A program made the translations under genes and the position numbers. The notes beneath the pieces are model-generated. The model was not told the DNA's origin and made no database searches. It was given only the letters and a program-made list of their open reading frames with translations. 64,000 bases of DNA from the IMG/VR virus record IMGVR_UViG_3300036792_000284, positions 60,280 through 124,279 of that record; one strand, given 5' to 3'. This stretch comes from a virus. How positions within the stretch are numbered: position 1 is the first letter of the stretch; every line of letters starts with the position of its first letter. Positions 1,820-29,239 of this stretch are shown here, in pieces.

Positions 1820-2053
1820 CTACCCGGCGTCCGCGAGGGCCTGGCGGACCAGGGCGTCCTTGGCGTCGACCAGCCGCTGCAGCCCGATGGTCAGCTGCGG
1901 CCCGTCGCCGAGGATTTCGAGCAGCTCGTCCCGCAGGTCGCGGAACATGTAGGCCACCGCAGCGGGCGCACCGGCCGGAAGGTTGGGGTTCGGCTCAAGC
2001 CACAGGGCCTTCTCCTGCGTGGCCCCGTGACGGCCGGTCAGGTCGGTACTCAT
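1820..2053 (-). CDS. Small helical-hairpin protein, possibly Acb2/Tad1-like
   Basis: ATG 2053 overlaps dnaX stop; LLEILGDGPQLTIGLQRLVDAKDALVRQAL resembles the widespread P.GPE.T.GLRKLLEAKD.VRA pattern. Confidence 0.5.
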   Translation of the reverse strand: MSTDLTGRHGATQEKALWLEPNPNLPAGAPAAVAYMFRDLRDELLEILGDGPQLTIGLQRLVDAKDALVRQALADAG

Positions 2054-3201
2054 GCGTGCTCCATGATGCTTTTCATCTCGGCGAGGGAGGCCGGGCCGGC
2101 CTGCTCCGGAGCGATCGGTGCCGGAGGTGGGCACAGACGGCGGCCGACCTCGGATATGGCCAGCGACAGGGCCGTCTCGCGGTCGTCCACCCGCACCTTG
2201 GTCTGCAGGTCCCACAGCACGTGCATCGCCGCCGACACCCGCCCCGCCCCGAGACGGCCGATAAGCTCCTGGCGGGCGGCGAGCGCCTGCCCCTGCGCGG
2301 CGACGTCTCCCCCGCAGGCCAGCACCAGCAGGTCCCGCAGGCACCGGACCAGCTCGCGGGTGACGTGCCCGGGGTCGCCGTGGGCCGACAGCGCCTCGTC
2401 CACCGCGGCGTACATGGCAGTGGCGTTGCCGTCGGCGGCGGCGGTCAGCAGCGCGGGTGCGAAGTCGGTCTCCCCGGTCAGCTCGCGCCACATCTCCAGG
2501 GAGCCGATGCCGACGCTGGCCACCTGGTCGAGCCGCACCACGGCGTCGCGCATCGCCCCGCCGCTCGCCTCGGCGATGGCGGTCAGCAGCGCGGGCTCGG
2601 TCGAGAATCCCTCGGCCTGGCAGATGTGCGCCAGCCGGTCGCGGATGACGGGCACCGTCAACGGGTCGAACCGGAACGGGCTGCAGCGGCTGCGCACCGG
2701 CCTCGGCACCTTCTCGAACTGCGTGGTGACCAGGATGAACACCACGCCCGGCGGCGGCTCCTCAAGGACCTTCAGGATGGACTCGAACGCGGCGTCGGAC
2801 AGGCCGTGCGCCTCATCGATGATGTAGACCTTGTACTTCCCGCCAACCGAGCCGTAGTAGGCCCGCTCGCGGATAGCGCGGATCTCCGCCACCGTGCCGT
2901 TGCTGGCCGCGTCCAGCTCCTCCACGTCCAGGCTGGTGCCGTCGTCCACCGCCCGGCAGCTCGTGCACGCGCAGCACGGCCACTCGGCCGCCTTGCCCGG
3001 CGGGGTCTCGCAGTTGAGTGCCTTGGCCACGATGCGAGCCATGGTCGTCTTGCCCGACCCCCACTTGCCGTAGAACAGCATCCCGCCGGGCACGGTCTGA
3101 CGCTTGCACATCAGGTACAGCAGCGCCACCGCCGGCCGCTGCCCGGCGACGTCGCCGAACATGGCCGGGCGGTACTTCTGGGCCAGTGCGCCCTCGCTCA
3201 T
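2050..3201 (-). CDS. dnaX: DNA polymerase III clamp loader subunit gamma/tau (gamma-length, 383 aa)
   Basis: KYRP.F.DVAGQ, Walker A GKWGSGKTT, Zn CCACTSC, ELDAASN, IIDEAH, LKVLEEPP, SRC. Confidence 0.95.
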   Translation of the reverse strand: MSEGALAQKYRPAMFGDVAGQRPAVALLYLMCKRQTVPGGMLFYGKWGSGKTTMARIVAKALNCETPPGKAAEWPCCACTSCRAVDDGTSLDVEELDAASNGTVAEIRAIRERAYYGSVGGKYKVYIIDEAHGLSDAAFESILKVLEEPPPGVVFILVTTQFEKVPRPVRSRCSPFRFDPLTVPVIRDRLAHICQAEGFSTEPALLTAIAEASGGAMRDAVVRLDQVASVGIGSLEMWRELTGETDFAPALLTAAADGNATAMYAAVDEALSAHGDPGHVTRELVRCLRDLLVLACGGDVAAQGQALAARQELIGRLGAGRVSAAMHVLWDLQTKVRVDDRETALSLAISEVGRRLCPPPAPIAPEQAGPASLAEMKSIMEHA

Positions 3202-8227: not shown

Positions 8228-9406
8228 TTACTTTCCTTCCTTGTAACCGACCAGGCGTGACACCATCTGCGTGCAGATGCCCGTCACCCCGGCCGCCTTG
8301 TCTTCCAGCAGCAGGTGCGGCAGCGCCTTGCCGCGAGGCTTCCCGAGCCTGAACTCGCAGAACGGGCCCGGGTGGGCCGACAGCATGGCGCCCAGGAACG
8401 CAGCGTTGACCACCAGCCCGTGGTGGCCGCCGTCCCACGTCGCGGCGATGACCTCCTCGGCCCCGTTGTTGGCGGCGTCGCGGGACATGACGGTCAGCAC
8501 CGGCTTCGCCCCGGTGCTGTCGGCGATGAGCGCCACGGCGGACGTGCTCGCGTCGGAGTTGATCCGCACCCGGCGCAGCGCCCCGGCCAGCTCCGCCTTG
8601 TCGACGCCCAGCAGCATGTCGTTGCCTGCTGCGAGCCGCAGGAACGTGCTGTCGACGTCCGGGAACGCGTGGTTCATCTTGAGCATGGCCAGCGTGACCA
8701 CGCCGACCCGGAACACCACGTACGACCCGGAGTCGGCCACCGCCACGTCGTCCACCGGGTTTTTCAGCAGCTTCAGCAGGTCGTCGAGCACGCCGCCGGG
8801 GATGCACAGCGGCACCGGAAACCCGGGAACCGGGCACTGGGCGAACTGGCTGCTGTCGGCCGCGCGGGCATACATGACGCCGCCCGCCTCGGCGATGCTC
8901 ACCTGCCGGGACGACGGGCGCCCGTCGTCCTTGCCGACCGCGTGCTTGACCGTGTTCAGCGCCGCGAGCAGCTTCTCACGGCTGACAGGGGCGAACTGCG
9001 CGCCGGACAGGTCGGGCAGTTCGGTGTACCCGTTCGGGCTGAACAACTTCAGCGACCAGGTAGCCGACCCCGCGGTCACCAGGGCAGTCATGCCTTTCAC
9101 CGACACGGTAACGTCGCCGTCCGGCGCCTCGCCCAGCATCGCCTCCAGCTTCCTGGCCGGCAGGAGGACCTCGCCCTCGCTCTGGGCGGTCACCGCCGGG
9201 GTCTCGGCGAAGACAGCCTGCCGCTGGTCGCTGGCGGCCAGCATCAGCCGGCCGGGGCCCACGGTGACCTTGAAGCACCCGTTCGCCGGCAGCGTCGGCG
9301 ACGACGGGACGGCGGGCAGCGCCCACTTGGCCAACTGGGCCAGGTGCCCCGTGCGGACCGTGAACTCAAAGGCGCCGTAGTCGGTGCCGCCCTGCACTTC
9401 GCTCAC
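8228..9406 (-). CDS. dnaN: DNA polymerase III beta sliding clamp
   Basis: 392 aa three-domain layout; LMLAASD, VLLPARKL, YTELPD, YARAADS, FPDV, LAGALRRV, VNAAFL. Confidence 0.9.
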   Translation of the reverse strand: MSEVQGGTDYGAFEFTVRTGHLAQLAKWALPAVPSSPTLPANGCFKVTVGPGRLMLAASDQRQAVFAETPAVTAQSEGEVLLPARKLEAMLGEAPDGDVTVSVKGMTALVTAGSATWSLKLFSPNGYTELPDLSGAQFAPVSREKLLAALNTVKHAVGKDDGRPSSRQVSIAEAGGVMYARAADSSQFAQCPVPGFPVPLCIPGGVLDDLLKLLKNPVDDVAVADSGSYVVFRVGVVTLAMLKMNHAFPDVDSTFLRLAAGNDMLLGVDKAELAGALRRVRINSDASTSAVALIADSTGAKPVLTVMSRDAANNGAEEVIAATWDGGHHGLVVNAAFLGAMLSAHPGPFCEFRLGKPRGKALPHLLLEDKAAGVTGICTQMVSRLVGYKEGK

Positions 9407-15416: not shown

Positions 15417-16478
15417 CTACGTCCCGGCGAAAAGGTCGTCGTCGGCCGGGAGCTGCGTCAGCGCCGAAGCGGCCGGCTTGTCGGCCACGGGGATGTTGAG
15501 CTTGGACTCGATCTCCTTGGCCACGTCCGGGTTGGCCACCAGGTGCAGGCGGGTCTTCTCCTTGCCCTGGCCGAGTTGCTCGCCGCCGTAGGTGTACCAG
15601 GACCCGGCCTTGCGGACGACGCCCTGCTCCACGCCGAGGTCGATGATCTCTGCCGCCCGGGAAATGCCCTGGCCGTAGATGATGTCGAACTCGGCGGTCT
15701 TGAAGGGCGGCGACATCTTGTTCTTCACGACCTTGACCCGCGTGCGGTTGCCGTAGGGGTCGCCGCCGTCCTTCAGCGTCTCGATCCGCCGCACGTCCAG
15801 CCGCACCGACGCGTAGAACTTCAGCGCCTTGCCGCCGGTGGTGGTCTCGGGAGAGCCGAACATGATGCCGACCTTCTCCCGCAGCTGGTTGATGAAGATC
15901 ATGGTCGTCTTGGTGGTATTCAACGTGCCGGTGAGCTTGCGCAGCGCCTGGGACATCAGCCGGGCCTGCAGGCCGACGTGGCTGTCCCCCATCTCGCCCT
16001 CGATCTCAGCCCGCGGCACCAGGGCGGCCACCGAGTCGATGACCACGATGGCGATATCCCCGGAGCGGACCAGCATGTCCGCGATCTCCAGGGCCTGCTC
16101 GCCGGTGTCCGGCTGGGAAACCAGCAGGGCGTCGGTATCCACGCCGAGAATGGCCGCATACTCCGGGTCCAGCGCGTGCTCCGCGTCGATGAACGCGGCG
16201 ATGCCGCCGGCCTTCTGGGCTTCCGCCACCCCGTGCAGGGCGAGGGTTGTCTTGCCGCTGGACTCCGGGCCGTAGATTTCGACCACCCGGCCGCGGGGGT
16301 AGCCGCCGATGCCGAGGGCCGCGTTCAGGGTGATCGAGCCCGTGTCGAACACCTCGGTCGGGACGCGCGTCTCGTCGCCCAGGCGCATGAGAGCGCCCTT
16401 GCCGAACTGCCGCTCGATCTGCAGGAGTGTTGCCGCCAGCCCCGCGGGGCTGGGTGACTTGCTGGACACCTTAGGCAC
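15417..16478 (-). CDS. recA: Recombinase RecA
   Basis: [59 protein letters not shown]. Confidence 0.98.
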
Positions 16479-17058
16479 TGAGTGCCTCCTTCTTGAGCGC
16501 CGGCCAGGCGATAGCCGGGTGCGCCGGCTTGCCCTTCTTGGCCGGCACGATGTCGGTCAGCACGGCACGCTGGTCTGCCGGCATCTTCACCAGCGGGAAC
16601 CCAGCCCAGTCCGCGCCCATGGCGGCCAGGGTCAGCGCGTCAGCGGTGTCGTTGCCGGTGATCCCGGCGTCAGGGAACCTCTTGAGGGCGGCGATCAGGC
16701 AGTCCTCTTTGCTCGCGTTAGCCCGGCCGGTGATGAACTTGGCCCGCTGGAACGGGCTAATGACGACATACGGCACCTTGAGCTGCCACAGCCGGTGCGT
16801 GAGCACGCCGAACAGCCCGGCCAGGTCCAGCAGCGACCGGCCTTTAGCGCCCATGGCCAGCCCTTCCACAACCGCGAAGTCGCAGCTGGCAGCGGTGACT
16901 TCCACGTTGTCGAGCAGCCACTGCATGCGCTCGTGCCCGAGCCCGAGCCGTGCCCCCGGGCGCCACCTGTGCAGCTCCACCGCGGAGCCCGGATCGGAAC
17001 TAACCCGGGCTCCGCCGAAAGAGGTCAGCGACTGATCGAGACCTAGGACGGTGGTCAC
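16471..17058 (-). CDS. ruvC: RuvC-like Holliday junction resolvase
   Basis: [33 protein letters not shown]. Confidence 0.8.
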
Positions 17059-18272
17059 TGCAAGTCGTCGAGCCCGTTGAGGATGTCCTTGAACGACTGG
17101 GCACCGGGCGTGGCGCCGTTCGCGCCCACTGCGGCCGGGACCGGAGCCGCCGGGGTGTCGTCGCTGCCGAAGAGGTCGTCATTGGCGACAGGGGCCGGCG
17201 CCGGAGTTGCGACCGCCGCAGCCGGAGTGTCGTCGCTGCCGAAGAGGTCGTCATCGGCGACAGGGGCCGGCGCCGGGGCGGCTGTCCGCTCAGGCGAGGC
17301 GAACTCGTCCAGGTCGTCCAGCGGCCCAGGTCGGTCCGGGTCACCCAGCAGGTCGTCCAGGCCGCCGTCCAGGCTCAGGGCCTGCTCGCCGGTGGACAGG
17401 TAGCCGTTTCCGGTCTTGCTCGGCGCTGGGCTCTTGCCCCAGTTCACAGCCTGGTGCCAGCGCGCCTCCGCGTCGCGGATGTCCCGGTCTATCCAGTCCC
17501 GGGTCGACGTCCGGCCGCAGGCGGCCTGCAGCTGCTCCTCGGTCGGCCGGTTCTCCACGACGCCCCACAGGCCCTGGATGACCGCCTTGACCGCGCGGCC
17601 GGCGTCCGAGTCGTGGCGCCAGGCACTTGGCATCGGCCAAATCTTGTCGATCTTCTGGTAGCCGTTCTCATTGGAGACGCAGATGTCGCACATTTGCAGC
17701 TTGACCGCGGCAGCGTCCTCCAGGTTCAAGAGCGCCGCCATCTGGCGCCGGATGCCGTCCACCTGCTCCCAGGACCACTGGGAGAGAGCCCAGACGAAAA
17801 TCTCGGCGTTGGGCGGGTTCCGCAGCTTCCCGTCAGGCTCGCCCTTCTTCTGGGTCGCGTACCGGATGACCGGGACGGCGTACCGCTGCTGCGGCCTCAG
17901 GTCCCGGGCGTCCGCAATGCCGGCGTCGAGCATCCGCTTGACGCCCGCGCACGCCGGGCAGCCGTCGGCGTCCAGCTCCTGCGTCGCGATGACGTCCGGG
18001 TCCCCGAGGCAGATCGGGGCGCCGATAAAGCCGCCCTCTTCCATGTCAAAGACGAGCCTGACCGCGCCCCTGACCTTCTTCTCCACCTGCAGCGGCTTCC
18101 CGTCATCCGCGAAGACGGGCGCCTTGATGTTGTGCCTGAACTCCATCCAGGCATAGTCCTGGTTCGGAATCCAGAGCCGGTGGCCTTCGTGCCGCTCCAG
18201 CTTCAGTTGCTCGAACCTGTCGACCTGGTTGCCCTCGCGGAACGCGCCGGCAGCGAGCGATACTCTCGGCAT
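17055..18272 (-). CDS. gp32-like single-stranded DNA-binding protein
   Basis: H...ICLG...CPAC Zn site, QRYAVPVI, long acidic tail; lies between recombination and replication genes. Confidence 0.7.
   Translation of the reverse strand: MPRVSLAAGAFREGNQVDRFEQLKLERHEGHRLWIPNQDYAWMEFRHNIKAPVFADDGKPLQVEKKVRGAVRLVFDMEEGGFIGAPICLGDPDVIATQELDADGCPACAGVKRMLDAGIADARDLRPQQRYAVPVIRYATQKKGEPDGKLRNPPNAEIFVWALSQWSWEQVDGIRRQMAALLNLEDAAAVKLQMCDICVSNENGYQKIDKIWPMPSAWRHDSDAGRAVKAVIQGLWGVVENRPTEEQLQAACGRTSTRDWIDRDIRDAEARWHQAVNWGKSPAPSKTGNGYLSTGEQALSLDGGLDDLLGDPDRPGPLDDLDEFASPERTAAPAPAPVADDDLFGSDDTPAAAVATPAPAPVANDDLFGSDDTPAAPVPAAVGANGATPGAQSFKDILNGLDDLQ
17147..17276. repeat. 72-bp-period duplication in the SSB tail
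   Basis: Two copies encoding PAPAPVA(D/N)DDLFGSDDTPAA. Confidence 0.9.
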
Positions 18273-19371: not shown

Positions 19372-21837
19372 CTACAGCTCAGCGGCGGCGGTCAGCGCAG
19401 CGGCGTCAGCCACGTCGTAGTGCACCGCCGCGCCGCCGAGGATGACCGCGACGCGGGCCTCGTGGGCCGGCGTCAGCCCGCAGGTGAAGCCGACCGTGAG
19501 CGAGCCCTCCGGCAGCTGCAGCTCCACCGAATTCCCTCCGGGGAGGGACTTCATGAACCGGGCCAGTTCGGCCACCTGCTCGCGTGACGGGGCCTGCCGG
19601 AGCACGACGACCACCGCCCGGGGCGCCTCGGCCCCCGGCTCCGCAGGCGGCACGACCTTGCAGCGCGGGCACTTGTCCTTCTTGCCGAGCACGACCTGGC
19701 CGTCTTCGGTGTGGATGTCCTTCACCGAGCCCCAGGACCTGCCCAGGTGCCATTCGGCGACCATCTCCGGCCACGCCGCACCCGGCCCGGTGACCGGGTA
19801 GACGACCGCGGGCTGCAGCACGGCTATGACCGTCGCCGGCGGCACGTCCTCGCGCGCCTCGAACTCAAGCGCGTCGTGGACGTTCATGAACATGCGCACC
19901 CGGTCGTCCAGCCCGGCCGCCTGCAGGGCCTTCACCGCGCGGATCATGGAAATTTTGACGTACTCGCCGGTCGCCGGGCCCTGGATGACCGCGTTGCCCG
20001 CGGTGCGCTCCTCCGCGGCCCGTACTTTCGGGTTGTCGCTGCGAATGTCGTGCAAGGTGACGCGGCGCCCGAACTTGGTGATGACGTACCCGTCGCGCTT
20101 CGCCTTCGCGATGACCCGGCGCCGGAACGGCTGCATGTGCGGGTAGGCGGCCTGGTACTGCCGGTCCAGCTCCTGGGCCTCCTCCTCGCTGATGCCGAGC
20201 TGCTCGGCGAGCGCCCTGATGCCCTGGCCGTAGATGGCCGCGAAGTTCCTGGTCTTTCCCCGCTTGCGCGCCTCCTCGGTCACCTGCTCAACCGCGATCT
20301 GCAGCATCAGCGCGGCGGTGCGGCTGTGCACGTCCTCGCCCCGGGCGAACGATTCCAGCAGCGCCGTCTCGCCGGCCTCGGCTGCCATCACCCGCAGCTC
20401 GATCTGGCTGTAGTCGAACCCGATGACGTACCAGCCCAGCTCTGTCGGCTCGGGCAGGTCGGTGCAGCCTGCCTCCTCCAGCACGTGGTCCCACCACGGG
20501 CGGTAACCCGGCTCCGCCGCCACGATGGCGTCGCGGAAGTTGAAATCGAACGTCGTGCCGTCGCGCAGCTCGAAGTGGTACTTGCCCGGGCTCTGCTGGT
20601 AGTTGGGCGTCTCGCAGGAGAACCGGCCGGCGATGGTGCCGTGCTGCATCAGGGTCGGATGCGCCCGGCCGTCGGCGGCCCAGGAGTACTTGTCCTCGTA
20701 GATGCTCAGGAAGTTGGTGTGCAGCGTAGTCAGCCGGGCCCAGCCCATGTACTTCCGGACCACGGGGTAGTCCTTGGCCAGGCCGGGCAGCGCGTTCTTG
20801 GCGTCTACGCTGGGCTTCCCGCCGGGCGTCCGGTGCAGCACCGGCATGCCGCACTTGTTGTAGAGCAGGTCGGCGAACTGGGCACTGGAGTTGAAGTTGA
20901 AGTCCGGCGGCAGCATCTCGCCGGTAATCTCCCCGAAGTCCTCGACAATCTCCGCCAGCAGCCGGCCGGAGAACTCCTGCACCTCCGCCGCCTTGGCGCG
21001 CAGCAGGTTCCAGTCGTACCGGACCCCGTTGTCGGACATCGAGCAGACGATGGGCAGCGTGGCCATCTCTACCTTGTAGATGAACGCCTGCGGGCCGGCC
21101 ACCACCTTCGGCCAGCGGTCCAGGTGGTGGCGCAGCGCCCATACCGCGTCCTCGCACGCGTAGGCGATGACCTCCGGGTCAGTCGGGTCGAAGACGCCGA
21201 ACCGGACCGTCTTGCCCTCCTGCCGGGTCGGCACCCGGCCGAGCAGGCGGCCGAGCAGGCTGTCCGATCCGTTGATCAGCTCGCGCATCTTGTGGCCGTA
21301 GTTGTCGAACGTGGCCGCCTTGAGGCCGTGGCTCTTGTTCTTGCCCTCGGCGAAGCTCTCCAGCAGGCCGTCCGACCGGATCGGGTAGTACCCGTGCGCC
21401 TCGCGGACCTGCTTGCCGAACAGCGGGTGGTCCCACAGCAGCCGCAGGAACCACCGCGACAGCCAGCGCAGTTCAGCAGGCGCGCCCCACGGCACCCCGA
21501 GCGGCAGGCCCTGGTCGTCGGTCACGTGGAGCAGGGCCCACATCCAGGCCGCGACCGGCTTGTTATCGACGTTGGGGCCGGAGTCAAACGCCAGGGGGAT
21601 CATCCGGCCCCAGGCCAGGGAGTTGGTGAACTGGACGGAGACGACGTAGTTCTCCTCCGGATGCAGCGCGGCGCCCTCCCGGCTCTCCCCGTAGTAGCCG
21701 GTCTCGACGTCGAACCCGAACGGCAGCTTCGCGTCGGCGACCGCCTGCAGCCGGTCCCGGATCTCGTCCAGGTCAGTCAACAGGTCGTAGCTGGGCGCCG
21801 TCTCAGGGGCTTCAAGTACCGCAGCCGTCACAGCCAT
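19372..21837 (-). CDS. polA: Family A DNA polymerase (3'-5' exo plus pol) with extra C-terminal domain
   Basis: ExoI FDVET, ExoIII YACEDA, GTIAGRFS..PNYQ, motif A DYSQIELR, motif B RKRGKTRNFAAIYG, motif C VHDA; GAGGAGGAG SD. Confidence 0.95.
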   Translation of the reverse strand: MAVTAAVLEAPETAPSYDLLTDLDEIRDRLQAVADAKLPFGFDVETGYYGESREGAALHPEENYVVSVQFTNSLAWGRMIPLAFDSGPNVDNKPVAAWMWALLHVTDDQGLPLGVPWGAPAELRWLSRWFLRLLWDHPLFGKQVREAHGYYPIRSDGLLESFAEGKNKSHGLKAATFDNYGHKMRELINGSDSLLGRLLGRVPTRQEGKTVRFGVFDPTDPEVIAYACEDAVWALRHHLDRWPKVVAGPQAFIYKVEMATLPIVCSMSDNGVRYDWNLLRAKAAEVQEFSGRLLAEIVEDFGEITGEMLPPDFNFNSSAQFADLLYNKCGMPVLHRTPGGKPSVDAKNALPGLAKDYPVVRKYMGWARLTTLHTNFLSIYEDKYSWAADGRAHPTLMQHGTIAGRFSCETPNYQQSPGKYHFELRDGTTFDFNFRDAIVAAEPGYRPWWDHVLEEAGCTDLPEPTELGWYVIGFDYSQIELRVMAAEAGETALLESFARGEDVHSRTAALMLQIAVEQVTEEARKRGKTRNFAAIYGQGIRALAEQLGISEEEAQELDRQYQAAYPHMQPFRRRVIAKAKRDGYVITKFGRRVTLHDIRSDNPKVRAAEERTAGNAVIQGPATGEYVKISMIRAVKALQAAGLDDRVRMFMNVHDALEFEAREDVPPATVIAVLQPAVVYPVTGPGAAWPEMVAEWHLGRSWGSVKDIHTEDGQVVLGKKDKCPRCKVVPPAEPGAEAPRAVVVVLRQAPSREQVAELARFMKSLPGGNSVELQLPEGSLTVGFTCGLTPAHEARVAVILGGAAVHYDVADAAALTAAAEL

Positions 21838-21886: not shown

Positions 21887-22825
21887 TCACCAGCCCGCGA
21901 CCAGGGACTCCGCCACGCCGTCGCGGGCGCCGGACCGCCAGGCAGAATCTGCCTGCGCCAGCCGCTGGCGGCAGCGGCGCACGCGGTCGGCGTCGTAGCT
22001 CCGGGCGTACCGGGCCACCTGGCTGGCCACGAACCGGCTGACGTCCTGGCCGGCTACCGCCTCGTGCAGCGAGAGCCCGGCCCGCAGTCCCGCGCCGACC
22101 TGCTCGACGGCGGCCAGCCGCACGGTCAGCAGGCCGATGACCGCGCCCAGCTCGCCGGGCCCGACCCGGCCGGCCGCCGCCATCGCCGCCCGCCTGCTCC
22201 CGGCCATCAGGTGGTCAGCCAGCTCGCCGCCGGGCTCGGCCGGGCAGGTCACCGCGGCCGAGGGAGCCACCGGCTTCAGCCCGGCCAGCCGGGCCTGCTC
22301 GCACGCCTGCCAGGCCCGCTCCAGGCTCCCGCAGCGGGCCAGCACGTCATGCGCGAAGCCGGCCGACGCGCCCGGCCACCAGGAGGCGACCAGGGCCACC
22401 CGGTCCTCCAGTTTCGACGGCTCGCAGCACCGGATCATCTGGCCCGACTTCGCGGACTTCAGCGTGACCAGGTGCGGGGCGAGCGCCCCGTCCTCCTGCG
22501 CGAAGTCACCGTCGCCGGAGACGAACACCACGTAGGCGGTCGCCAGGGCCTCCTCCCCGGTAAGCAGGTCCATGTCGGAGGTGTTCTTCAGCTTCTCCGC
22601 GCCGTAGACCACGGCCCTCCGGCCGCCGCCCGGCGGGACCGACAGCAGGTGGTTCCAGATGTCCTGCTCGGGGACGTCCCCGGCGAACAGCGCCACGCAC
22701 TGGTCCGCCGCCGCGCCCTCACGGTGCGCGGCCACCACGTCCCGCACGAGCACCGGCTCGGGGCCGCACACCCACGTGACCCGGCGGACAGGCCTGCTCC
22801 GGCTCCACTGCAAATACGTAGCCAT
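21887..22825 (-). CDS. holA: DNA polymerase III delta subunit-like
   Basis: WVCGPEPVLV, LLSVPP..RRAVV..AE, C-terminal RFVASQVARYARSY....LAQADSAWRSG...ESLV. Confidence 0.75.
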   Translation of the reverse strand: MATYLQWSRSRPVRRVTWVCGPEPVLVRDVVAAHREGAAADQCVALFAGDVPEQDIWNHLLSVPPGGGRRAVVYGAEKLKNTSDMDLLTGEEALATAYVVFVSGDGDFAQEDGALAPHLVTLKSAKSGQMIRCCEPSKLEDRVALVASWWPGASAGFAHDVLARCGSLERAWQACEQARLAGLKPVAPSAAVTCPAEPGGELADHLMAGSRRAAMAAAGRVGPGELGAVIGLLTVRLAAVEQVGAGLRAGLSLHEAVAGQDVSRFVASQVARYARSYDADRVRRCRQRLAQADSAWRSGARDGVAESLVAGW

Positions 22826-23365: not shown

Positions 23366-24025
23366 TCACTCCTGGCAGAAAACCCGGTCCAGCGCTACCA
23401 CCGCGCCGAGGCGGGCGCCGGGGTAGCGGGCCAGCTCGGCCAGCAACCGCAGCGCCTGGTCCCGGCTGACACCCGGCGCGAAGTCCGGGTCGAACACCTG
23501 CCACCGGCCGGTGGCGGCCTCAGCCGCCCACGCCGACAGGAGCCGGGCGTGGGCGGGCAGCCAGGTCCGGGCGGTCTGAGCAAGCAGGCCCGGCCGCCTC
23601 GCGCGTGCTGCCTTGATGGCCGCGCCGACGGCGGTCACGTCCTTCGGGTCCGGCTGCTCGACCTCCTGCGCCTGCCCGAGCACTAGCGTGCGGCATCGGG
23701 ACAGCACGGTCGGCAGCGGGCGCCGCTCCGCGGCGAGGATGAACCGGGTGTCCGCCGACGGCTTTTCCAGGACCTTCAGGAGCATGTTCTGCACCTGGGC
23801 ACTCGCGTTCGCCAGGTTCAGCGCGATGATCCGGAGCCCCCGCAGCGGGGCCATCCCCGCCTCGGCCCAGACCTCCCGGGCAGCGGCGGCGTCCAGCTCC
23901 CACCGGAACGCCCAGCCGTGGTCGGTGCACGCCTGGAACACCAGGGCCGCGGCGCCGGGGCCGACCACCAGGGTGGCCGGAGGCAGCTCGCCCGCCAACG
24001 CGGCGCGTACCTGCTCAGGAGTCAC
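23366..24025 (-). CDS. holB: DNA polymerase III delta-prime-like subunit
   Basis: NMLLKVLEKP...FILAA...LPTVLSRC; no Walker A lysine. Confidence 0.8.
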   Translation of the reverse strand: MTPEQVRAALAGELPPATLVVGPGAAALVFQACTDHGWAFRWELDAAAAREVWAEAGMAPLRGLRIIALNLANASAQVQNMLLKVLEKPSADTRFILAAERRPLPTVLSRCRTLVLGQAQEVEQPDPKDVTAVGAAIKAARARRPGLLAQTARTWLPAHARLLSAWAAEAATGRWQVFDPDFAPGVSRDQALRLLAELARYPGARLGAVVALDRVFCQE

Positions 24026-24458
24026 GCTTCCCCACCTCGATCCAGACGTCATACTCGGTCCCGATCCAGTCCATGCTGGTGTACTTCTCTACGTGCAGGT
24101 CCACCGTGACCGGGCCCCGCCAGCCGTAGGTAAACCAGCCACCGCGGTCAGTGCCGTTGACCTCGACGCTCCCGTAGCGGAGGCCGAGCACGTAGCCGGG
24201 GTAGACCTCGAACTCGCCGGTCAGCAGGTCCTGGCCGTCCGGGCACAGGTCATCGACACCGGCCGGGCACTTGCGGCAGTGCAACCACGTCCCGTCGTCC
24301 GGGTCGATGTGCAGGTACCAGTCGTGGCCGGGGCACCGGTTGACGAACAGCGCCCGCCAGGCCTCGCCCTCCAGGTCGGGCCCGTACCGCCAGAGGCGGT
24401 CGTGCTCGGCGACTTCCTCGTCCGACAGGATGCGCCACTCCAGCTTCGCGGCCTTCAT
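24015..24458 (-). CDS. Hypothetical protein with Cys/His motifs
   Basis: CPGH...HCRKC; 147 aa. Confidence 0.6.
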   Translation of the reverse strand: MKAAKLEWRILSDEEVAEHDRLWRYGPDLEGEAWRALFVNRCPGHDWYLHIDPDDGTWLHCRKCPAGVDDLCPDGQDLLTGEFEVYPGYVLGLRYGSVEVNGTDRGGWFTYGWRGPVTVDLHVEKYTSMDWIGTEYDVWIEVGKRDS

Positions 24459-27239: not shown

Positions 27240-27779
27240 TCACTTTGCCAAGTGCGGGTTCAGGACGCGCCTCATAGCCACCTTGCACCCCGTCAGCCAC
27301 TTGTCGCAGTCCTCCTCCGTCTGCACCCTGGGCAGCAGGCCGAGGCACTGCGACAGCTTCCCCGCCACGGCAGCGTCGTACTGCCGGGTCCGCCAGTCCG
27401 GGCAGTACGTCTCGCACCAGGTGCGCAGGGCTGTGGCCAGGTCGTCCCGGGCCGGCTCCGGGCGCCGCGAGGCATCCACCCACAGGCGCCCGTAGTCGTC
27501 GACCTCGTAGCCGATCCGCTTCAGCGCCGCACGGGCGGCGTCCTCCGGCTCCATCTGCCATTTCTCGGCCAGCAGGGTCACGGTGGTGAAGTAGCGCTGC
27601 TCGCCGAAGCACCACCCGTGGTCGGAGTACACGCGCAGCGCGTCCCGCTCTTCGCACGCCGGGCAGGTCGCCTTCATGCCGCGCTCGCGCGCCGCGTCGG
27701 GCAGCTTCACCCACTGCAGCGCCAGGGTGAACGCAACCTGCTCGTTGGCGGTGGCAACGGCCGACTTCGGGCGCTGCAT
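27240..27779 (-). CDS. Primase-type zinc-binding domain protein lacking TOPRIM
   Basis: CPACEERDALRVYSDHGWCF, LLAEKWQMEPEDAAR; coupled to dnaB. Confidence 0.6.
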   Translation of the reverse strand: MQRPKSAVATANEQVAFTLALQWVKLPDAARERGMKATCPACEERDALRVYSDHGWCFGEQRYFTTVTLLAEKWQMEPEDAARAALKRIGYEVDDYGRLWVDASRRPEPARDDLATALRTWCETYCPDWRTRQYDAAVAGKLSQCLGLLPRVQTEEDCDKWLTGCKVAMRRVLNPHLAK

Positions 27780-29239
27780 CAGAGGTCCAGGTCGGGATAG
27801 TCCTCCGCCGCCACGTCGTCCCGGTCGGAAAAGTGGCTGTTGGCGAAGTCGGCGGTCAGCGGGAACTTCGCGCCCCGGGGCCCGTCGCGGTACTTCAGCA
27901 CCTTCGCCGTCAGCGCGACGGCCCGGCCGTGGGATTCGTCTTCCCCGGCGGCCATGAGGCCCAGCACCATGCCCGGGGTCCGGCCGGCCTCGATCGTCTC
28001 CGACAGGTCTTCCAGCCGGTACTCGCCGCTGCTGCGCATCGAGCCGATGCCCTCTTTGTTGACCTGCCACGGCGAGATGACCGGCACGCCCCGGCCGTGC
28101 AGGAACGACTGAGCCCAGCGCTGCGTCCCCTTGAGGATGCCGCCCTGGCTCTCGTTCAGCCGGGAGTCCCGCGTCCGCCTCTCCGGGTCAAGCAGTTGCA
28201 GGTAGTCGATGATGACCAGGTCCGGAGCTACCTGGCGCGAGATCGCGGCGGCGCGCGCGGTCAGCACCGACAGCGTGCACGTCTCGGGCATCTGCACGAC
28301 GTGCAGCATCCCGTAGCCGCCGTTTTTCAGGTCGTCGACCACGGCGGCCAGCGCGCGCTCCCCCTCCTCGCCCAGGCGGCCCGACCGGATGAGGCGGGTG
28401 TCGAGGCCGCGCGGCAGGCCGAACTTCGGGTGCCGCGAGTGCCGGGCCACCAGCTTGATCCGCACCGCGTTGCGGTGCTGCTCGGTGGTGAAGATGACAA
28501 CGTTCTTGCCCTGGTTCACCGCGTTGTGCCAGGCACACTGCACGCACAGGCTCGACTTGCCGGCGGTCATGGCCGCGGCGACGAGCCCCAGCTCCCCGTT
28601 GCCGATGCCGCCGTCCAGGTGGTCGTCCAGCGTAGGGATGCCGAACTCGATGCCGGGCACCCGCCCGGACTTCCGCTGCTCTTTCACCGCCGCGTAGACG
28701 GCCAGGATGTCGTCGCCCTCGGCCCGGACGTCGCCCTCCGGGCTGTCCTGGGCGCCGCCGGCGCGCTCGGCGACGGCGAACGCGGCCACCACGTACGCAC
28801 GTGCCTCGGCGTGCCCGACAAGGGGTTCTCCGGTGTGCTCGTCGCGCACCTCCTCGCCCGGCCGCGGGTTCATGATCCGCATGGCGACCGCCATCGCGTC
28901 GCCGGTGGCACGCTCGGCCGCCAAGTCGCGCAGCTGGGCGACCGAGTGAAGGAACTCGTGCCGCTCGGGGGCCGCCGCGGCCAGCGCATCGTAGGCCTCG
29001 CCGAACATCTGCACGGTGCCCGGCTTCTTGCCGCGCAGCAGGTCCCCGAGCGCGGCCCGGGTCATGATGCCCTCGTTGGCGTCGGCGTAGCGGATCAGCA
29101 GGAGGAAGAGCCGCTGCTGCACCGTGTCGGTGAAGTGCTCCGGGCCCAGCCGGGACGCCGCGTAGTCCAGCGCCCGCGTGGACCCGCCGGCGGCCACGAC
29201 CGCCGACAGCACGGTCTTGCCGTGAGCTACCGCGTCCAT
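27779..29239 (-). CDS. dnaB: Replicative DNA helicase
   Basis: LGPEHF, GIEFGIPTLD, GELGLVAAAMTAGKS, FTTEQ, IIDYLQLL, PVISPWQVNK, KVLKYRDGP. Confidence 0.9.
   Translation of the reverse strand: MDAVAHGKTVLSAVVAAGGSTRALDYAASRLGPEHFTDTVQQRLFLLLIRYADANEGIMTRAALGDLLRGKKPGTVQMFGEAYDALAAAAPERHEFLHSVAQLRDLAAERATGDAMAVAMRIMNPRPGEEVRDEHTGEPLVGHAEARAYVVAAFAVAERAGGAQDSPEGDVRAEGDDILAVYAAVKEQRKSGRVPGIEFGIPTLDDHLDGGIGNGELGLVAAAMTAGKSSLCVQCAWHNAVNQGKNVVIFTTEQHRNAVRIKLVARHSRHPKFGLPRGLDTRLIRSGRLGEEGERALAAVVDDLKNGGYGMLHVVQMPETCTLSVLTARAAAISRQVAPDLVIIDYLQLLDPERRTRDSRLNESQGGILKGTQRWAQSFLHGRGVPVISPWQVNKEGIGSMRSSGEYRLEDLSETIEAGRTPGMVLGLMAAGEDESHGRAVALTAKVLKYRDGPRGAKFPLTADFANSHFSDRDDVAAEDYPDLDL

Follow-up and report, generated by a model that had tools for sequence, protein, structure and literature searches.

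We have found that the family A DNA polymerase (PolA) of an uncultured phage recorded in IMG/VR (IMGVR_UViG_3300036792_000284) ends in a small domain that resembles the tau-binding C-terminal domain (CTD) of the alpha subunit (DnaE) of bacterial DNA polymerase III (Pol III). Families A and C of DNA polymerases are unrelated, and here the docking domain of the second is found on a member of the first, amid a set of Pol III accessory proteins that comes without alpha. The DNA analyzed, referred to below as the window, is a stretch of 64,000 nucleotides with ca. 70% G+C that makes up the right half of the 124,279-bp record. A first-pass annotation had proposed a chimera of PolA and Pol III alpha, and both the fold match and the profile match described here support this proposal; the protein that it quoted is read exactly so from the open reading frame 19372..21837 (minus strand), the tail running to the stop codon, and the region that it singled out, 19372-19680, corresponds to amino acids (aa) 720-821 of PolA plus the stop. 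The data support that the tail is a Pol III alpha CTD of the tau-binding type, strongly diverged and transferred alone, i.e., without the oligonucleotide/oligosaccharide-binding (OB) domain. Probably it serves to attach PolA to the DnaX complex that the phage itself encodes, a binding and a partner that we infer from fold, sequence profile, gene content and co-variation among relatives. A literature search found no paper reporting a fusion of PolA with a Pol III alpha CTD, and in current annotation the domain is merely a part of 'DNA polymerase I'.

The domain consists of 85 residues that follow the linker and extend to the stop codon. The AlphaFold2 model obtained from the tail alignment of the near clade (A2, with 18 invariant columns) had a mean predicted local distance difference test (pLDDT) score of 81 and showed the order beta-alpha-beta-beta-alpha-beta, followed by a terminal helix that was modelled less confidently. 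Compared with the PDB by Foldseek, its six best matches were all to Pol III alpha of Thermus aquaticus (Taq) on the tau-binding domain (2hpi, 3e0d, 4iqj; probability 0.66-1.0, 21-26% identity), a comparison that the first-pass annotation had suggested, and E. coli alpha (5fku, 5fkv) was also listed. Nothing significant was found by Foldseek in BFVD. Using VIA-align, the model superposed on residues 1125-1218 of Taq alpha with Z scores of 7.6, 7.6 and 7.4 (root mean square deviation 3.2-4.5 Å over 68-77 aligned residues) and on residues 1075-1160 of E. coli alpha with Z scores of 5.5 and 5.1, the tau-binding domain of the latter being residues 1079-1160 (PMC4703070). The next fold after the alpha CTDs scored 4.4-4.7 (KaiB 4.7). 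A search independent of Foldseek over 48,161 PDB representative chains gave Z of at least 5 solely for Taq alpha (7.4) and E. coli alpha (5.5), with the chain at rank 50 already at 2.9, i.e., the fold superposes on the solved alpha CTDs better than on any other fold.

Sequence profiles point in the same direction. We fetched the DnaE1 genes of 36 actinobacterial genomes, reached via the phage RecA, and their 36 C-termini carry the pattern L..L...HPG...V.L ... LLG that the first-pass annotation had given for DnaE. When 123 phage tails were compared with these C-termini by hhalign, the score was 34.4 (probability 86%, P 5e-6) and the alignment was in the expected register, matching helix 1, the PG turn, strands 2-3 and the LG motif; the score fell to 11.5 with a reversed template and to 12.4 or less with 30 column-shuffled ones. 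The identity of the tail to host-type DnaE1 CTDs was 15-19%. In the reciprocal comparison, a hidden Markov model made solely from the DnaE1 CTDs matched best within the final 100 residues of 46 of 53 full-length PolAs (11% expected), a result that is supportive only, because the PolA rows are related. The tail alone had no match in Pfam or NCBIfam, and the E. coli DnaE CTD, searched in the phage collection and the protein database, retrieved enterobacterial sequences only. Since the domain follows a family A polymerase and a proline-rich linker, with no OB domain and no family C context, we consider it a transferred domain and not a DnaE.

The tail is a conserved property of a group of polymerases. 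A search restricted to aa 700-821 gave 21 homologues, 40-58% identical over the tail and all of them PolA. The A2 profile, run exhaustively against 1.84 billion representative proteins, retrieved 105 clusters at E<=1e-3, in nearly all of which the domain was located at the very C-terminus. The hits of at least 300 aa that could be typed by Pfam were PolA or a C-terminal PolA fragment, the exceptions being P0068, which had no Pfam match, and P0105, a repeat protein; mid-size hits were PolA fragments. The tail being conserved and always found on PolA, with no DnaE among the hits, the domain family is specific to PolA. We had suspected DnaE behind 19 long hits, and all were PolAs with inteins or N-terminal extensions, bar one repeat protein. 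Many tail-bearing PolAs (P0017, P0047, P0077, P0082, P0095, P0108 and P0125; 1090-1480 aa) owe their length to LAGLIDADG-type inteins within the polymerase domain, and others (P0058, P0061 and P0104) have N-terminal extensions of ca. 300-600 aa without a Pfam match.

Among the clade relatives in IMG/VR (27, drawn from 34 loci) the domain was present in 22. Two genomes flagged as unpublished, G006 and G023, were used in no sequence set, only in tallies, and no claim is based on them. The remaining five relatives (G062, G063, G066, G067 and G069) have PolAs of 675-689 aa that end right after the polymerase domain, without hairpin, linker or domain, and no copy of the domain was found anywhere else in their whole records (positive control 5/5). 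These five form two clades nested among the domain-bearing PolAs, indicating two losses of the domain. A low-GC phage, G047, which encodes DnaX and a PolA without the domain, was considered as a negative case but is a single example.

The gene content is that of a Pol III replisome deprived of its polymerase. No DnaE was found in the whole 124,279-bp record. Genes for delta' and delta are located directly upstream of PolA on the same strand, and with DnaX also present the bacterial-type clamp loader is therefore complete. The delta gene had no Pfam or PHROG match; its model (pLDDT 91.5) had B. subtilis delta as top Foldseek match (3zh9, E 3.5e-9), followed by E. coli 8giy_A and 1jr3_D. RecA and a RuvC-like resolvase are also encoded. 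The relatives are similar: DnaX was found in 17/17 and DnaN in 17/17 of the records with a completeness of at least 90%, and a search of 22 records for DnaE detected it in only one. This sole carrier, G071 (IMG/VR, 129 kb), has a domain-bearing PolA and, at C1:99166-99975, a full DnaE-type Pol III alpha (frame of 1233 aa, E 1e-89). Both DnaX and DnaN are kept by four of the five domain-less relatives, DnaN not being found in the record of G066, which is 89% complete.

The most probable partner of the domain is suggested by the phage DnaX. The first-pass annotation had described it as gamma-length and apparently lacking tau domain V. The length (383 aa) was confirmed and domains IV-V are indeed missing after the collar domain, but the chain retains a conserved C-terminal peptide: ca. 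27 residues follow domain III, a proline-rich linker CPPPAPIAPEQAGP and the terminal peptide ASLAEMKSIMEHA. PF12170 did not match the phage DnaX, a miss without weight given how narrow the model is. In 88 phage-type DnaX proteins (377-395 aa) the peptide has the consensus AS-[VL]-[DE]-[FE]-[MI]-[RK]-x-x-[LM]-G-x-x; the DnaX of the Microbacterium phage Magritte ends in ..LSLAEMQRG, and more distant relatives in ISLADM, LTLAQM, LSLDEM and similar sequences. Wherever the DnaX of a domain-bearing phage is known (17 phages), linker and peptide were found, with 53-62 residues after the LWDL motif in 16 of these phages; the DnaX of G054 has no LWDL motif, yet the tail is seen. In three of the five domain-less relatives DnaX stops with domain III or shortly behind it (33, 35 and 44 residues), and these three losses fall in two separate clades. 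By simple count, DnaX tail and PolA domain go together with P ~0.007, a figure based on only two independent losses. This comparison of sequences suggests a coupling without proving it. As the peptide has been lost only in lineages with a domain-less PolA, we propose it as the docking partner. Two DnaX proteins are unusual: in G049 and G066 (loci L231 and L233/L234) the frames have 884-1477 and 723 aa and the TIGR02397 match is split in two, which suggests inteins or insertions.

Some of our results speak against the docking of an alpha-type CTD on the phage DnaX. The best Foldseek E-value was only 5e-3, and the structural scores are moderate, with Z below 8 for a fold of the common ferredoxin-like kind. 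HMMER found no DnaE with the tail profile among the 1.84 billion representatives, and neither phmmer nor a profile hmmsearch found DnaE in the PDB sequences (best hit CsoZ, E 0.59). PF20914 (DNA_pol_IIIA_C) did not match the tail at E<=1; this model is narrow, detecting only E. coli among 14 control genomes, and therefore the miss carries little weight. By hhalign the tail had no link to 43 enterobacterial CTDs (1%), while true DnaE CTDs, actinobacterial against enterobacterial, link at 97.5% (P 5e-12); the phage domain is therefore a divergent branch, nearest to the actinobacterial and Thermus-type CTDs. As to the partner, two of the five domain-less relatives keep the DnaX peptide, and we could not trace this peptide to the host: a position-specific scoring matrix (PSSM) made from it scored best at the C-terminus in only 2 of 39 host tau proteins (P 0.41).

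The modest structural scores and the silence of HMMER would be explained if the tail were a generic ferredoxin-like domain that has converged on this shape, unrelated to DnaE and with a role that has nothing to do with the clamp loader. We regard this as highly improbable, given that the alpha CTDs exceed every other ferredoxin-like chain by ca. 3 Z units, that the profile match is in the right register at P 5e-6 against controls, and that the position is the same, the extreme C-terminus of a replicative polymerase in genomes that have the remaining Pol III accessory set. A domain that is homologous, or alike in fold, could also bind another component of the replisome, such as DnaB, primase, an SSB-like protein, or the clamp through the terminal SVD...L..GLxL, much as the polymerases of T7 and T4 touch their helicase or clamp. 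That terminal peptide is conserved family-wide and modelled with low confidence (pLDDT ~60), as docking peptides often are, and the DnaX peptide kept by two domain-less relatives may have another role. E. coli alpha has a clamp-motif-like sequence at its very end. The phage peptide, however, fits the classic clamp motifs QL[SD]LF and QLxLxL poorly, and no co-variation with other partners was seen, though none was looked for; we consider a partner of this kind unlikely.

The RecA of the phage is 77-78% identical to actinobacterial RecA, a similarity that indicates a probable actinobacterial host, and the closest profile match of the domain is to DnaE1 CTDs of this same phylum. As the phage DnaX lacks tau domains IV-V, the domain could instead mimic host DnaE1 and bind host tau, PolA joining in this way the host clamp loader and helicase in competition with the host Pol III. 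Such mimicry seems quite improbable: the phage, like its relatives, has genes of its own for DnaX, delta, delta' and clamp, CTDs of the host type are only 15-19% identical to the domain, the domain keeps its own invariant residues across phages of different hosts (Magritte included), and the loss of the phage DnaX tail tracks that of the domain. The host (actinobacterial) tau proteins are 552-1207 aa in length and contain long linkers as well as a DnaX_C domain. At loci L142-L180 they mostly end, after long Pro/Ala-rich linkers, in hydrophobic-x-x-x-[LF]-G-[AG]-x-[VI]-[VI]-E-E (..LIVRELGATVVEE and like), and this conserved end is probably their polymerase-binding tip. That the phage DnaX peptide is a copy of it remained unsupported also when the PSSM was limited to the tau extension (8 of 37, against 5.8 for shuffled matrices). 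The globular C-domains of tau in E. coli and Taq are unrelated (PMC4703070), from which the partner element appears to be evolutionarily plastic.

Docking on the phage's own DnaX is, then, the reading that we prefer. In the mechanism that we find most likely, the alpha-CTD-like domain, attached to the family A polymerase by a flexible proline-rich linker, would bring PolA onto the DnaX complex (DnaX, delta and delta'), the contact on DnaX most likely being the short conserved C-terminal peptide, and polymerase, clamp loader and clamp would work as one holoenzyme, as in bacteria. It is possible, and we put it forward tentatively, that a Pol III holoenzyme has been rebuilt here on a family A polymerase, with an alpha CTD on PolA and a 'mini-tau' DnaX whose polymerase-binding peptide of ca. 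13 residues sits on a short linker. If so, the link between polymerase and clamp loader would be a portable module independent of the polymerase family, and this two-piece connector would be the smallest known. The case suggests that the architecture of a replisome (the tether between polymerase, clamp loader and clamp) can persist while the catalytic engine is swapped.

Compared with the Pol III alpha CTD (E. coli 1079-1160, 5FKU/5FKV; Taq ~1125-1220, 2HPI/3E0D/4IQJ), which is its best structural match, the phage domain has the same fold order, shares the L..L...PG..V.L and LG motifs of the profile match and likewise forms the very end of the replicative polymerase, in a genome that also encodes clamp and clamp loader. 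It differs in being on a family A instead of a family C enzyme, with a proline-rich linker replacing the OB domain, in being too diverged for HMMER or PF20914, in having its own invariant residues (R, LPG.N, CGL.P..E and Y) and an added conserved terminal peptide, and in that the presumed partner DnaX has no tau domain IV-V. In other phage polymerases, T7 gp5 and T4/RB69 gp43, short tails or inserted loops make the contact with helicase or clamp, and there too a small accessory-binding add-on gives the enzyme processivity and coupling. Those add-ons are peptides or loops unrelated to DnaE, whereas here it is a folded bacterial Pol III domain; and where T7 relies on thioredoxin from its host and T4 on a PCNA-like clamp, this phage has a bacterial-type beta clamp and DnaX loader. 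In gp69 of Magritte (OR553905.1), an 888-aa PolA whose sole annotation is 'DNA polymerase I', the architecture is the same and the domain occupies aa 806-881 (E 8e-21). Synteny is shared as well: two ATPase genes lie upstream of PolA, while SSB and RecA lie downstream. The identity between both PolAs is only 35%. Magritte is cultured on a laboratory host and is therefore the practical choice for experiments, and the fusion offers a small tractable system to study how tau holds the polymerase.

Table 1. Position in the window of PolA, its parts and the other replication genes of the phage.
Feature	Position	Strand	Basis
Family A DNA polymerase gene, 821 aa + stop	19372..21837	-	Open reading frame; Pfam PF00476, NCBIfam PolA models
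N-terminal region, aa 1-293, 3'-5' exonuclease-like motif FGFDVETGY	20959..21837	-	Motif read in translation
Polymerase domain, aa 294-705, motif C at aa 652-660	19723..20958	-	Pfam match aa 294-665
CxxC hairpin (aa 709-726) and variable-length proline-rich linker (aa 727-735)	19633..19722	-	Homologue alignment
C-terminal domain, aa 736-821, tau-binding-domain-like	19375..19632	-	AlphaFold2 model, Foldseek, VIA, hhalign
Extreme C-terminal peptide, aa 808-821, consensus SVDxxxLxxGLxL-COOH	19375..19416	-	Conserved across 26 diverse members
Clamp-loader delta (HolA-like), directly upstream of PolA	21887..22825	-	AlphaFold2 and Foldseek
Clamp-loader delta'-like subunit	23366..24052	-	PF13177, E 1.8e-7; phrog_5846 'clamp loader'
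DnaX, gamma-length, 383 aa	2050..3201	-	TIGR02397 positions 3-343 of 355, E 1.4e-87
C-terminal end of DnaX, linker CPPPAPIAPEQAGP followed by conserved peptide ASLAEMKSIMEHA, proposed to dock the PolA domain	2053..2133	-	Conservation, co-variation
Beta sliding clamp DnaN	8228..9406	-	PF00712, E 2.7e-12
DnaB-type replicative helicase	27779..29239	-	PF03796, E 2.3e-15

The rest of PolA is that of a family A enzyme. Pfam DNA_pol_A (PF00476) covered its domain with an E of 7e-75, motif C reads NVHDALEFE, and the conserved polymerase block extends to WHLGRSWGSVKDI, ending near aa 705. For the N-terminal region, a PF01612 match was obtained in the homologue P0047. The sequence KKDKCPRCKVVPPAEP is found at aa 719-734, and the proline-rich linker varies from ca. 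10 to ca. 55 residues among homologues. The terminal peptide, as SVDxxxLxxG[LIM]x[LF]-COOH, is kept even in members at 26-35% identity (alignment A3) and might serve for docking to the clamp or to some other partner. Residues 709-726 (window 19660-19713) read HxEDGQxVLGKKDKCxRC, with a near-invariant His and a CxxC; in an alignment of 20 homologues H709, C723, R725 and C726 were almost invariant. This segment, missing from the more distant members P0021 and P0022, might form a hairpin or one half of a metal site.

Two other proteins in the window carry DDLF motifs. The C-terminus of RecA (window 15420-15446) ends in ..ADDDLFAGT, and a 405-aa frame at 17055-18272, in the position of the SSB of Magritte, has two tandem ..DDLFGSDDTPAA.. 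repeats within an acidic tail (~17058-17330). In both proteins the motifs look similar to SSB-tip or clamp-binding peptides, and they may mark a shared docking site.

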